From positions 1 to 17,973 of the forward strand of contig QHTZ01000039.1 of assembly GCA_003221005.1 (NCBI GenBank): a DNA stretch of 17,973 nucleotides, read 5' to 3'. Source of the DNA: Gemmatimonadota bacterium (lineage in GTDB: Bacteria > Gemmatimonadota > Gemmatimonadetes > Gemmatimonadales > GWC2-71-9). Shown in pieces: positions 13,518 to 16,921 of the stretch. A program made the translations under genes and the position numbers. Position 1 is the stretch's first letter, and every line of letters begins with the position of its first letter. The notes below the pieces were generated by a model. The model did no database searches. It saw nothing but the letters and a program-made list of their open reading frames with translations, and had not been told where the DNA came from.

Positions 13518-15071
13518 ATGCCCGCGCGGATCGATCCCTTCGTCGACCTCCTGCTGCGCGAGCAGGGGGAGCAGCTGTACCTCCTCCCCGACGAGCCGGT
13601 GACCATGGTGAAGGGGGGCAAGCCGCGCAGAGTGAGCCGCCAGCCGCTCACCGACCAGCACATCTACGCCCTGCTGGTCGAGGTGGCACCCTCGGAATCC
13701 GCCGACCACATCGACAAGATGGCGGAGACCGAGTTCGAATACGCGGCGGACCGCGGCCTCGTGCTGGTGCGCATCGTCCCGGAGCAGGGCCGGCTCACGG
13801 CCGTGGTGGCGCCGCTCGAGCAGGCAGAAGCGTCCGACCCTGCCCCGCCCGTGGCGCCACCGCGGCCGCCCCGGCCCTCCGCGATCGCTGCGGCGCCCAT
13901 GGTGGACGCCCCCGCCGCGACCGCGCCCGCACCGGCGCCACGGCCTGCGCTCCCCGGCGAATTCGCCGCCTCCCAGTACCAGGCGGCCGAGCGGGCGCTC
14001 GGCGAGCTGCTCAAGCGGCTCGTGCAATCCAAGTCGTCCGACCTGCACCTGCGGGTGGGCGAGCCGCCTCTGTTCCGAACCAACGGCGAGATTGCCCGGC
14101 AAGCGCCGCCACCCGTCTCGGGCGATCAGCTCGAGCTGCTGCTGCTTGCCATCATGCCGGAGCGGAACCGCGTCGAGTGGAAGGAGACGGGAGACTCGGA
14201 TTTCGCCTACGAGATCGCCGGGCTGGCGCGCTTCCGGGTGAACGCGGCGCGCGACCGCAAGGGTCCGGTTGCCGTGTTCCGCGTGATCCCGGCGCAGGTC
14301 GTGTCGGCGGAGCAGCTCGGCCTCAACAAGGAAGTGCAGCAGCTCTGCTACCTCACGAAGGGGCTCGTGCTCGTGACCGGACCGACGGGATCCGGGAAGT
14401 CCACCACGCTCTGCGGGATGATCGACCTCATCAACCGGAACCGCACCGATCACATCATCACGATCGAAGACCCGATCGAGTTCGTGCACGAGAACAAGAA
14501 ATGCGTCATCACCCAGCGTCAGGTAGGCATCCACACCGAGAGCTTCCGGTCCGCCCTGCGGGCGGCGCTGCGCGAGGACCCCGATATCCTGCTCGTAGGC
14601 GAGATGCGGGACCTCGAGACGATCGCGATCGCCATCGAGACCGCCGAGACGGGGCATCTGGTGTTTGGCACGCTGCACACCACGACCGCGGCCTCCACTG
14701 TGGACCGCATCATCGACCAGTTCCCGGCCGACCGCCAGTCGCAAATCCGGGTCATGCTCTCCGAGTCGCTCAAGGGCGTGATCGCGCAGACGCTGTGCAA
14801 GAAGGTCAGCGGCGGGCGGGTCGCGGCGCGCGAGATCCTCCTCACCACGCCCGCGATTTCGAACCTGATCCGCGAAGGCAAGACCTTCCAGATCCCCTCG
14901 ATCATCCAAACGTCGAAGCAGCTCGGCATGCTGACGCTGAACGACGCGCTGGTCGATCTTGTCGAGAAGAAGGAAGTGAGCCCCGACGAGGCTTACATGA
15001 AGTCGGTCGAGAAGGCGGGACTCGTGACCTCCCTCAAGTCGAAGGGCTTCAAGGTCACTCTAGCGTCGTAG
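13518..15071 (+). CDS. pilT: Type IV pilus retraction ATPase PilT with extra N-terminal domain, 517 aa
   Basis: SDLHL, Walker A GPTGSGKST, Asp box TIEDPIE, ALREDPD, Walker B LVGEMRD, His box TLHT, and AISNLIRE (AIRNLIRE-like). Confidence 0.93.
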   Translation: MPARIDPFVDLLLREQGEQLYLLPDEPVTMVKGGKPRRVSRQPLTDQHIYALLVEVAPSESADHIDKMAETEFEYAADRGLVLVRIVPEQGRLTAVVAPLEQAEASDPAPPVAPPRPPRPSAIAAAPMVDAPAATAPAPAPRPALPGEFAASQYQAAERALGELLKRLVQSKSSDLHLRVGEPPLFRTNGEIARQAPPPVSGDQLELLLLAIMPERNRVEWKETGDSDFAYEIAGLARFRVNAARDRKGPVAVFRVIPAQVVSAEQLGLNKEVQQLCYLTKGLVLVTGPTGSGKSTTLCGMIDLINRNRTDHIITIEDPIEFVHENKKCVITQRQVGIHTESFRSALRAALREDPDILLVGEMRDLETIAIAIETAETGHLVFGTLHTTTAASTVDRIIDQFPADRQSQIRVMLSESLKGVIAQTLCKKVSGGRVAAREILLTTPAISNLIREGKTFQIPSIIQTSKQLGMLTLNDALVDLVEKKEVSPDEAYMKSVEKAGLVTSLKSKGFKVTLAS

Positions 15072-16103
15072 CAGCTGAGCCGGCGACTCCGCCAGCTGCC
15101 GCCCCAGCGCGCTCGCCACGTCGCGCATCCGCTCCATCAGGTCGGCGAACCCGTCGAGCCGCAGCGACTGATCGCCGTCCGAGCGGGCGTGATCAGGATC
15201 GGGGTGCACTTCGATCAACAGGCCGTCGGCGCCAGCTGCCACCGCCGCGAGCGCGAGCGCCGGCACCAGGTCGCGGCGTCCGGCGGCGTGACTCGGATCC
15301 ACGAGCACCGGGAGATGGGTTTCCCGCTTCAGATAGGGCACCGCCCCGATGTCGAGGGTATTGCGGAGCGCGCGCTCGAACGTGCGGATGCCACGCTCGC
15401 ACAGCATCACGTGCGGGTTGCCGCGCGCCAGGACGTATTCGGCCGCGAGCAGCAGGTCCTCGAGCGTCGCCGACAGCCCGCGCTTCAAGAGCACCGGCTT
15501 CCCCGACTCCCCCACCTCGGTCAGCAACGCGAAGTTCTGCATGTTGCGAGCCCCCACCTGGAGGCAGTCGGCCTTCTCCGCGACGAGCGCGACGTGCCGC
15601 GTGTCGAGCACCTCCGTGACGATCGGCAACCCCGTCGCCGCGCGCGCCACGACCAGCATGTCGAGCGCCTCCGACCCGAGCCCGTGGAAGGCGTAGGGCG
15701 ACGTGCGCGGCTTGAAGGCGCCGCCCCGCAGCGCCGCCGCGCCGGCGGCCCTCACGGCCTCGGCCGTCTGCAGCAGCATGGCCTCGCCCTCGACCGAGCA
15801 CGGTCCTGCGATGACGTGGACCGCGCCGTCGCCGACGGCTCCCTGACCCAGGCTCACCTGCGTGTCCCCTGCGGCGAACTCGCGCGCCGCGAGCTTGTAA
15901 GGTTTCTCGATCGGGACGACCGTCTCGACCGCCGGGAAGGCGAGCATCGGCACCTCGCGCAGCCGGTCTTCATCGCCGATACAGCCCACGATGGTGCGCG
16001 TGACGCCGCGCGAGATGTGGGGGGTGAGGCCGAGCTGGCGCACCTGCTCGACCACCTGGGCGAGCTCCTCCTCGGTGACGTGCGGACGCAGAACGATGAT
16101 CAT
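15060..16103 (-). CDS. aroF: 3-deoxy-7-phosphoheptulonate (DAHP) synthase, type I-beta with N-terminal ACT-like regulatory domain, 347 aa
   Basis: GAGGAG RBS then ATG 16103 (MIIVL). Motifs IAGPCSVE, RGGAFKPRTSPY, GARNMQNF, LLKRG, CERGIRTF, VDPSH and SDGDQSL. Confidence 0.96.
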   Translation of the reverse strand: MIIVLRPHVTEEELAQVVEQVRQLGLTPHISRGVTRTIVGCIGDEDRLREVPMLAFPAVETVVPIEKPYKLAAREFAAGDTQVSLGQGAVGDGAVHVIAGPCSVEGEAMLLQTAEAVRAAGAAALRGGAFKPRTSPYAFHGLGSEALDMLVVARAATGLPIVTEVLDTRHVALVAEKADCLQVGARNMQNFALLTEVGESGKPVLLKRGLSATLEDLLLAAEYVLARGNPHVMLCERGIRTFERALRNTLDIGAVPYLKRETHLPVLVDPSHAAGRRDLVPALALAAVAAGADGLLIEVHPDPDHARSDGDQSLRLDGFADLMERMRDVASALGRQLAESPAQLLRR

Positions 16104-16126
16104 GCAGCGCTCCTCGAGACGGTCGG

Positions 16127-16166
16127 AAAAACCAACGGCCCCGGTGAGTCGCCGGGGCCGTCGGTT
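16127..16166 (-). terminator. Intrinsic terminator (attenuator) in the aroF leader
   Basis: Minus strand reads AACCGACGGCCCCGG-CGACTCA-CCGGGGCCGTTGG-TTTTT: a GC-rich stem with one G-U followed by a 5-U tract, ending about 24 nt upstream of the aroF ATG. Confidence 0.9.
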
Positions 16167-16187
16167 CATGTGAGTTTGGGCTTTGGT

Positions 16188-16274
16188 CTAGCTGGTCACT
16201 GCCGCCCTGGCGCACGAAGCCGACGACCCCGCGGGGCTAAACCAAAACGCGAAGTAGTAGCTCGTGCGCTGCAT
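16188..16274 (-). CDS. Aromatic amino acid attenuator leader peptide MQRTSYYFAFWFSPAGSSASCARAAVTS (28 aa)
   Basis: ATG 16274 to TAG 16190-16188. Codons 6-12 are TAC TAC TTC GCG TTT TGG TTT. It lies between a promoter and the terminator upstream of DAHP synthase. Confidence 0.88.
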   Translation of the reverse strand: MQRTSYYFAFWFSPAGSSASCARAAVTS

Positions 16275-16280
16275 GCGGGT

Positions 16281-16309
16281 AGCCTAGCCTCTTACCGCCG
16301 GGCTGTCAA
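16281..16309 (-). promoter_or_regulatory. sigma70 promoter for the leader peptide and aroF
   Basis: Perfect -35 TTGACA (16309-16304), 17-nt spacer, -10 TAGGCT (16286-16281), then 6 nt to ATG 16274. Confidence 0.8.
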
Positions 16310-16320
16310 CGCCGTAGAAT
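16292..16320 (+). promoter_or_regulatory. Candidate divergent sigma70 promoter for the 16352 gene
   Basis: TTACCG (16292-16297), 17 nt, TAGAAT (16315-16320). Overlaps the aroF promoter. Confidence 0.5.
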
Positions 16321-16351
16321 GGCCGTCCCTAACCCTTCTCGAGGAGGAAGT

Positions 16352-16921
16352 ATGCGCCTGCTTCCGGCGTGCTGTACCGGGCTCGTCACCGCGCTGCTGC
16401 TGCCGGCGCTGGGTCACGCCCAGGCTGCGATGATGACTGACGCGCAGTTCATCCAAGCCGCCCAGGGGGGCGCGCCCGCCGCGATCTCCGCGAAGGCTGC
16501 GATCGTCCGGATCGATGCGGCGAAAAAAATGACCATGGAAGTGCGGCCGGGTTCCAACGGGTTCACCTGCTCGATCATCCCCGATGAATCGAAAGCCCCG
16601 TTCTGCGGTGACAAGAACGCCTGGGCCTGGTTCGCCGCGGCGTTCACCGGCCAGCCGAAGCCCCCCAATACAGAGCCGGGAATCTCGTACATGGCGCAGG
16701 GCGGCATCCACTACGAGACCGCCACCGGCGACATCGTGATGGCGCCCGGGGCCGGCACGAAGAACGTCGCGGAGCCTCCGCACTGGATGCTGATGTGGGC
16801 CTTCGATCCCGCGGCGAGCGGCCTTCCCACCAAGCCGAACGCGAGCGGCGTGTACATCATGTTTGCTGGGACACCGTTCGCGCACCTCATGATCTACCAG
16901 AATCCGGCGACCATGAAGTAG
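16352..16921 (+). CDS. Secreted hypothetical protein, 189 aa
   Basis: GAGGAGG RBS and ATG 16352. Signal peptide ending GHA/AQA. Motif-like segments GSNGFTC, PFCGD, GISYMAQGG, PPHWM and GTPFAHLMI. Confidence 0.85.
   Translation: MRLLPACCTGLVTALLLPALGHAQAAMMTDAQFIQAAQGGAPAAISAKAAIVRIDAAKKMTMEVRPGSNGFTCSIIPDESKAPFCGDKNAWAWFAAAFTGQPKPPNTEPGISYMAQGGIHYETATGDIVMAPGAGTKNVAEPPHWMLMWAFDPAASGLPTKPNASGVYIMFAGTPFAHLMIYQNPATMK

Follow-up and report, generated by a model that had tools for sequence, protein, structure and literature searches.

A candidate leader-peptide attenuator with aromatic codons upstream of a type I-beta DAHP synthase gene in Gemmatimonadota

Described attenuators and the aroF leader

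In Escherichia coli, the leaders of pheL-pheA and trpL-trpEDCBA work through competing protector, antiterminator and terminator helices, and their regulatory codons are located in or next to the first segment of the RNA (Yanofsky 1981; Zurawski 1978; as cited in a review). The same logic can be read from a stretch of 17,973 nucleotides (nt) of a Gemmatimonadota genome, here called the window (C84 among the 141 contigs of a genome of 2.79 Mb, completeness 94%), upstream of aroF, the gene of a 3-deoxy-D-arabino-heptulosonate 7-phosphate (DAHP) synthase. Judged from its sequence, this element is very probably a ribosome-mediated leader-peptide transcription attenuator of one of two type I-beta DAHP synthase isozymes. 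Each of the two E. coli leaders is devoted to one amino acid and to a terminal branch of the pathway, whereas the leader of the window stands at the common first step. In addition, pheL and trpL possess a Shine-Dalgarno site as well as a 5' untranslated region (UTR), whereas the window leader looks leaderless. The E. coli thr and ilvGMEDA leaders mix codons of several amino acids of their pathways (Thr/Ile and Ile/Leu/Val, respectively). They are multivalent like the window leader, in which the mixed codons are those of the three aromatic amino acids and the controlled enzyme is that of entry into the shikimate pathway.

Control of a DAHP synthase gene by a leader peptide is already in print. 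The aroR-aroF attenuator of Corynebacterium glutamicum was reportedly described by Neshat et al. in 2014. Its leader peptide carries the residues Phe-Tyr-Phe and attenuates the DAHP synthase gene (PMC11802643, PMC4046766), and it resembles the window leader in that mixed aromatic codons are located upstream of the gene and that stalling raises read-through. Compared to aroR, the window leader belongs to a different phylum, its cluster is longer (six aromatic codons in seven), and Trp is included. The window enzyme is of type I-beta with an N-terminal ferredoxin-like (FXD) domain, and the likeness to aroR is functional only; the C. glutamicum aroF product we take to be of class I-alpha. In Acholeplasma, the uORFC-13-1 motif before aroF consists of a small upstream open reading frame (ORF) with Phe codons beside an intrinsic terminator (Brewer et al. 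2021, PMC8632094). Unlike the window element, this motif is found in a low-GC Mollicute lineage and is described as coding for Phe only, and it is itself unproven. Attenuators have also been predicted before DAHP-synthase-led operons in Thermus (aroA(I-beta)>tyrA) and Vibrio, and a Tyr-tRNA-sensing attenuator has been hypothesised for E. coli aroF. Concerning the leaderless layout, leader peptides that start at the transcription start have been described in Deinococcus deserti (PMC4007540), and the words "aromatic" and "DAHP" do not occur in the main text of that paper. A full-text literature search that combined Gemmatimonadetes with leader peptides and attenuation yielded no paper.

Given the published DAHP synthase attenuators (C. 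glutamicum aroR-aroF, the Acholeplasma motif and the Thermus prediction), the window element adds to a known mechanism, and the original prediction, which had suggested that such a leader might be undescribed, overstated its novelty. What is new here is the presumed leaderless layout, the presence of a second, leader-free isozyme, and the Trp-only, Tyr-only, Phe-rich and mixed leaders of the relatives. The understanding of how attenuation works is unchanged, the mechanism being textbook. The value lies in a series of leaders across the lineage whose codon content shifts and whose layout is consistently leaderless. Classical attenuation is extended to a little-studied and mostly uncultured phylum. 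The codon content differs with the lineage and the enzyme clade, and the series could serve for asking how the specificity of attenuators evolves, and also if one codon for a third amino acid suffices as an additional input.

Leader ORF, promoter geometry and competing helices

The leader ORF (16188-16274; here and below window coordinates refer to the minus strand unless the plus strand is given) starts with ATG, comprises 28 codons followed by a TAG stop (16190-16188), does not have a Shine-Dalgarno sequence and is presumed to be leaderless. Its translation is MQRTSYYFAFWFSPAGSSASCARAAVTS (28 residues). Aromatic residues are found at codons 6, 7, 8, 10, 11, and 12 and nowhere else in the ORF, and codons 6 to 12 form the regulatory cluster Tyr-Tyr-Phe-Ala-Phe-Trp-Phe (16239-16259). 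Considering all 16,198 ATG-started small ORFs of 8 to 45 codons in the six frames of the whole genome, six aromatic codons within seven are found a single time, namely in this leader, and five within seven are found in four ORFs. The genome has a GC content of 69%, and Phe, Tyr, and Trp together account for 5.7% of the codons in long ORFs. Two of the three Phe codons in the cluster are the rare TTT, as are 11 of the 16 Phe codons across the five leaders of the genus, and among the 19,783 Phe codons in the genome's long ORFs 2,504 are TTT. This preference could be due to slower decoding or to pairing of the RNA.

A -35 box TTGACA (16304-16309) is followed, after a spacer of 17 nt, by a -10 box TAGGCT (16281-16286), which is located 6 nt ahead of the leader ATG (16274); the same -35 box and the same spacing recur in relatives. 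We defined the leaderless geometry as a -35 box (TTGACA or TTGCGC), a distance of 16-19 nt, and a hexamer nAnnnT ending 5-7 nt before an ATG. This geometry is present at 21 of 24 related loci, while 500 shuffles gave 0.11 of 24 on average and never more than 2, and in the genome it is present at 20 of 6,885 ATG triplets (0.29%). Because the distance from promoter to ATG is conserved in this way, the transcript presumably begins at or beside the A of the leader ATG (16274), and the mRNA would be leaderless. The only support for translation of the leader ORF comes from the same conserved geometry.

The leader ORF is followed by an intrinsic terminator (16127-16166), which consists of a G+C-rich stem of 15-16 base pairs, a loop of 7 nt, and five U residues. 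Its 5' arm extends over 16166-16152, its 3' arm over 16144-16130, and its U-run over 16131-16127; from the end of the U-run to the ATG of aroF (16103) there are 24 nt. Three helices compete in this leader. Segment 1 (16246-16269) is the 5' strand of the protector and overlaps the codons Tyr6 to Phe8. Segment 2 (16210-16233), in the 3' half of the leader ORF, can pair with either segment 1 or segment 3, and segment 3 (16152-16172) is the 3' strand of the antiterminator and at the same time the 5' arm of the terminator. Thus, the protector (1:2) joins 16269-16246 with 16233-16210, the antiterminator (2:3) joins 16233-16210 with 16172-16152 by 18 pairs including two G-U pairs and one bulge, and the terminator is the 3:4 helix. 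The duplex energies of -31.3 (1:2), -34.0 (2:3), and -34.3 kcal/mol (3:4) are near-isoenergetic. The minimum-free-energy fold of the 187-nt leader is the 2:3 antiterminator, its centroid is the protector plus the terminator, and its fold has a z-score of -2.75 with 3 of 200 shuffles folding equally well. The full 155-nt transcript folds without constraint into 1:2 and 3:4 (-73.8 kcal/mol). By reading the sequence and by the folds, all coordinates and pairings that the original prediction had given for the ORF, the terminator, and the segments were recovered.

Based on this layout, transcription would start at the A of the leader ATG or beside it, and the ribosome would load on the leaderless 5' AUG. 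If charged tRNA-Tyr, tRNA-Phe, and probably tRNA-Trp were plentiful, the ribosome would reach the TAG stop (16190-16188), segments 1 and 2 would pair behind it, 3:4 would form, and RNA polymerase would stop at the U-run (16131-16127) before aroF. If one of these tRNAs was poorly charged, the ribosome would stall on codons 6-12 and cover segment 1, whereupon 2:3 would pair, the terminator would be blocked, and aroF would be transcribed. Without any translation, 1:2 and 3:4 would form and transcription would end. We infer the step from stalling at codons 6-12 to antitermination from the established trp/phe/his model, and the ORF would be translated, ribosomes would stall on it, and it would respond to each of the amino acids. 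In the folds, the ribosome was represented by a footprint of 30 nt with its A site placed on the aromatic codons in turn, and the transcript was ended before the 3' arm of the terminator. In this nascent transcript, 2:3 was the best fold each time when the A site was on Tyr6, Tyr7, Phe8, or Phe10. It was still formed with the A site at Trp11 and was shortened with the A site at Phe12.

Conservation in relatives and alternative explanations

A DAHP synthase match is present in every genome of 60 relatives (G020 is counted in this tally only). Four relatives of the genus encode a full-length AroF orthologue with 83-84% identity, and two more orthologues are 3' fragments at contig ends. Each of the five upstream regions assembled in the genus, the window's own counted, contains the leader, and its clusters read YYFAFWF, YFYFAFWY, YYFGFFWF, and, twice, YYFTFWF. 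In the genus, 90% of the cells of the 2:3 helix pair with one compensatory pair, and 74-78% of the cells of the 1:2 helix pair with no compensatory change. A metagenome scan for closer relatives yielded a best identity of 64% and no new genus-level sequences.

Beyond the genus, a hairpin with a U-rich tail is present in all 24 Gemmatimonadota aromatic leaders examined, and in these 24 leaders the best partner of the 5' arm of the terminator is located within the 3' portion of the ORF. The terminators in the relatives were called by a strict definition, and the wide-window helix search is noisy from neighbouring hairpins. In a comparison of own with swapped partners, which included 17 loci with distinct terminators (the near-duplicates L002-L005, L021, L026, and L039 were dropped), the 2:3 energies of the own partners sum up to -323.8 kcal/mol, compared to a mean of -254.8 kcal/mol (standard deviation 11.1) for permuted partners, and none of 20,000 permutations reached the own sum. 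Segment 2 and the terminator arm thus co-vary. Covariation was scored for 18 leaders from the clade of the window, aligned with MAFFT without refinement. The terminator has 69.7% of its cells paired, double-sided changes are found in 11 of 16 pairs, and the score is 0.315 versus 0.199 for shuffled alignments (0 of 500 reach it; slid controls at most 0.194). For the antiterminator, the core of 12 pairs has 68.3% of its cells paired, double changes are found in 7 of 12 pairs, and the score is 0.179 versus 0.143 (24 of 500 shuffled alignments reach it; slid controls at most 0.126). The aromatic codons themselves are enriched in the sense direction. Among 179 DAHP synthase loci from three collections, for which 300 nt upstream were searched for ORFs ending 40-140 nt upstream, an ORF with at least four aromatic codons in seven is present at 34 loci in sense versus 2 in antisense orientation, and one with at least five in seven at 17 versus 0. 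Conserved small ORFs with aromatic codons and co-varying terminator and antiterminator helices, for which the original prediction had proposed to inspect the regions upstream of orthologues, are found there. The trpL/pheL-type logic with four RNA segments, which had been read from the window, appears to be conserved in relatives, the protector having been followed in the genus, and for the terminator and the antiterminator there is evidence of the covariation type.

Several observations weigh against an attenuator of this kind. At equilibrium, 2:3 is still the best fold of the truncated transcript when the ribosome is left out, and termination must therefore rely on 1:2 forming first, that is on the kinetic order of folding. 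In the full-length RNA, an A site placed on Trp11 or Phe12 frees the 5' half of segment 1, and the minimum-free-energy fold retains the terminator. The ribosome-footprint folds, also proposed as a check in the original prediction, hence agree with it for the nascent transcript at Tyr6 to Phe10 and disagree for the full-length RNA at Trp11 and Phe12. The U-tract is interrupted in two members of the genus (G005, G006). Covariation within the genus alone is found neither in 1:2 nor in 3:4, and the comparison with shuffles is not significant; the helices are near-invariant, and the genus therefore offers too little variation to decide. A scan for consensus promoters and terminators flagged neither the promoter of the leader, whose -10 hexamer TAGGCT agrees with the consensus at only three of six positions, nor the terminator between leader and aroF, and so it is not usable as support. 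The terminator was probably missed since the stem, when lengthened by its A-U pairs, takes in some of the U-run. None of the 4,227 models of Rfam 15 matches the window at the gathering score. In a 601-nt region, six sub-threshold matches were found at an E-value of at most 10, none of them to a leader family; four are located on the terminator hairpin alone and two extend beyond it (16154-16230 and 16078-16163). Public RNA data contribute little. In three soil metatranscriptome runs of one study, fractions of 0.19, 0.11, and 0.06 of the sampled words were present. The RNA contigs over 15060-16400 comprise one of 261 nt at 15838-16098, one of 264 nt that covers 16181-16400 and extends further, and short fragments in other places, at a depth of about 2 and showing neither ends nor strand. 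The contig over the leader extends upstream of the presumed start and therefore may represent DNA or another transcript.

Two explanations would do without translational attenuation. The hairpins might be a switch in the 5'-UTR with a protein or a small molecule as its reader, like a riboswitch or TRAP, translation of the ORF being absent or irrelevant. This would agree with the missing ribosome-binding site of the ORF and with RNA contigs that are uninformative on translation. However, the aromatic cluster is kept across lineages together with an in-frame ATG whose spacing to the -10 box is fixed while the remaining peptide and RNA drift, the antisense control is near-empty (2 of 179 against 34 of 179), and no Rfam riboswitch or leader family was matched in the window. 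In addition, the amino acids of the leader fit the pathway of the gene, and the same holds for Leu before leuA and Cys before sulfate-assimilation genes in this genome (see below). We regard such a switch as very unlikely. Even less probable is that the ORF encodes a functional aromatic-rich peptide with the hairpin as its own terminator and a separate promoter for aroF. Within the genus the ORF is indeed conserved, also in a stretch at its C-terminus (TGS.GSCARA-like), but this stretch coincides with segment 2 and pairs with the terminator arm, and outside the genus only the aromatic cluster is kept. The 24 nt between U-run and aroF start leave no room for a promoter, and the order of small ORF, terminator, and DAHP synthase gene recurs at several clades of DAHP synthases.

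Which amino acids the attenuator senses is a different matter. Tyr and Phe are likely to be sensed, since segment 1 is covered best by stalls at codons 6 to 10. Sensing of Trp through its one conserved codon is plausible but not secure, because it is a single codon, is located late in the cluster, and is maybe held by a helix with the stop region. The same attenuator might therefore respond only to Phe and/or Tyr, the Trp codon being kept by descent or by RNA pairing, and the chance of this falls only a little below even. In C. glutamicum, only Phe limitation is reported to have raised transcription for the aroR peptide Phe-Tyr-Phe, and Tyr was without effect despite its codon (PMC11802643), which speaks against sensing of all three amino acids. 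RNAalifold pairs the UUUGGUUUA stretch with the region of the stop codon; this helix joins the Phe-Trp-Phe codons (16237-16246) with 16181-16190, corresponds to columns 38-46 and 100-108 of the genus alignment A1, and shows one compensatory change. The GG of UGG is paired with CC in three of five genus members at one column and in five of five at the other, and the Trp codon could therefore be conserved for structure; the helix may thus confound the conservation of this codon. Besides, the ribosome at Trp11 frees the 5' half of segment 1 in the full-length fold, which retains the terminator, and the cluster is without Trp in many related leaders (L006, L007, L008, L010, L011, L038).

On the other side, the single Trp codon is found at the same place in all five leaders of the genus although the neighbouring positions vary, and the nascent transcript with the ribosome at Trp11 still gives 2:3. 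Trp also stands beside Tyr and Phe in further leaders (L036/L039, L034, L144, L101, L178, L189, L206, L214, L215, L217). L036/L039 and L034 belong to separate branches of the leader clade, and L144, L178, L189, L206, and L214-L217, which are off the tree, are presumed to be independent. Furthermore, the genus does not have an isozyme with a Trp leader, and no leader was seen at trpE. Taken together, three-way sensing of Tyr, Phe, and Trp is about even. The claim of the original prediction that one leader integrates the charging of three tRNAs at the shikimate entry therefore stands only in part: it is favoured by the Trp codon in five of five genus leaders and weakened by this being a single codon and by the second, leader-free I-beta isozyme. 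If it is true, a single RNA would do in the genus the work that is done in E. coli by three isozymes, TyrR, and TrpR, and among the aromatic pathway genes of the genome the window leader would be the sole control of the leader type that was seen. Inspection by eye of the regions upstream of trpE, pheA, and tyrA of the genome revealed no leader ORF, and trpE is located closely behind another gene. More broadly, and rather doubtfully, the leaderless aromatic leaders might represent an evolvable multi-input family at the shikimate entry, in which the cluster of the window genus would integrate three tRNAs and the rare TTT would tune the sensitivity.

DAHP synthase isozymes, further leaders and the surroundings of aroF

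The content of the leaders varies with the clade of the enzyme. In a tree of 49 DAHP synthases (quick IQ-TREE with SH-aLRT support), the clade holding the window comprises 21 rows with a support of 99. Mixed clusters occur in its leaders, as do Tyr-only (YYYY, YYAY), Phe-rich (FHFFFPF), and Tyr/Phe ones (FFSFAFYF). Another clade, with a support of 95, includes five Gemmatimonadota rows and Ferrimonas balearica and has Trp-only leaders (LWWRW, WWPW, WWW). Such Trp-only leaders with terminators (L012, L014, L016, L021, L026, and L074, the latter from Ferrimonas balearica) are located about 85-100 nt before the start of the DAHP synthase and are the Trp-specific counterpart of the window element. 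In a third clade of 12 rows with a support of 99, no aromatic ORF was found upstream. The second I-beta DAHP synthase with an FXD domain of the window genome (C32:668-1690, minus strand; L031) belongs to this leader-free clade. It is 52% identical to AroF, starts with GTG 5 nt past an upstream ORF, and does not have a leader; presumably, it is co-transcribed with the upstream ORF and differently regulated. A type II DAHP synthase was not found in the window genome at its completeness of 94%. Second paralogues in eleven other genomes are preceded by an aromatic ORF in none of the eleven cases, and both types of leaders on FXD-bearing isozymes were seen together in no genome examined.

A further class, from other genera of the order, comprises DAHP synthase cores that are FXD-less or are fused behind a prephenate dehydratase-ACT module, and these are mostly located behind aromatic leaders with terminators. 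Eight of these loci were fetched (L214-L221, from the genomes G021, G018, G041, G011, G047, G059, G049, and G043), of which L214-L218 have clear and L219 and L221 partial leaders. Mixed Tyr/Phe/Trp leader-like ORFs were also found before I-beta DAHP synthase genes at L101, L178, L189, L206, and L205, whose enzymes are only 52-58% identical to the window AroF. L101 is from a metagenome-assembled genome of the Phycisphaerales, that is from another phylum, and the other four are metagenome contigs.

Within the window genome, a strict genome-wide scan for leaderless leaders with a terminator found the leader of the window and no other. A relaxed scan gave 113 rows that are mostly noise, of which six were followed and three kept. 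One is a Leu-rich ORF with ten Leu in 30 residues (C61:44865-44957, plus strand; L116:116-208). It is followed by a hairpin and a U-run and is located 90 nt ahead of leuA (L116:299-1852), which encodes an isopropylmalate synthase of 517 residues with HMGL-like and LeuA_dimer domains. According to its sequence this ORF is likely a leucine leader-peptide attenuator. The other two are Cys-rich ORFs with strong terminators (C61:21647-21757, minus strand, L115; C8:14842-14934, minus strand, L114), about 175 nt ahead of two genes, one for a phosphoadenosine phosphosulfate (PAPS) reductase and one of the TauE/SafE sulfite-exporter family. Both ORFs are similar to the cysteine-responsive, polycysteine leaderless small ORFs reported from mycobacteria (bioRxiv 10.1101/834739).

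The aroF gene itself (15060-16103) encodes a protein of 347 residues, which matches PF00793 DAHP_synth_1 at 2.2e-77 (residues 87-328) and, with its N-terminus, PF18152 DAHP_snth_FXD at 3.8e-21 (residues 1-67). The closest named AroF records are from metagenome-assembled Gemmatimonadaceae, Gemmatimonadales, and Longimicrobiales genomes. A Shine-Dalgarno sequence GAGGAG is located at 16110-16115. An in-frame ATG at 16169 would extend the reading frame to 369 residues and run through the terminator. This start was rejected, because the relatives align from residue 1 of the 16103 start and GAGGAG stands ahead of the latter. In the annotation, the start of aroF should therefore be 16103 and not 16169; a gene caller taking the longer frame would hide the attenuator, and small leaderless ORFs like that of the leader escape gene callers. 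The gene downstream of aroF, a T2SSE/PilT-like ATPase, is convergent and the remaining neighbours are unrelated to aromatic synthesis, so that aroF is monocistronic. On the plus strand, a divergent ORF of 200 residues (16319-16921), for which no Pfam match was found, has a signal-peptide-like N-terminus and starts about 45 nt from the promoter region of the leader.

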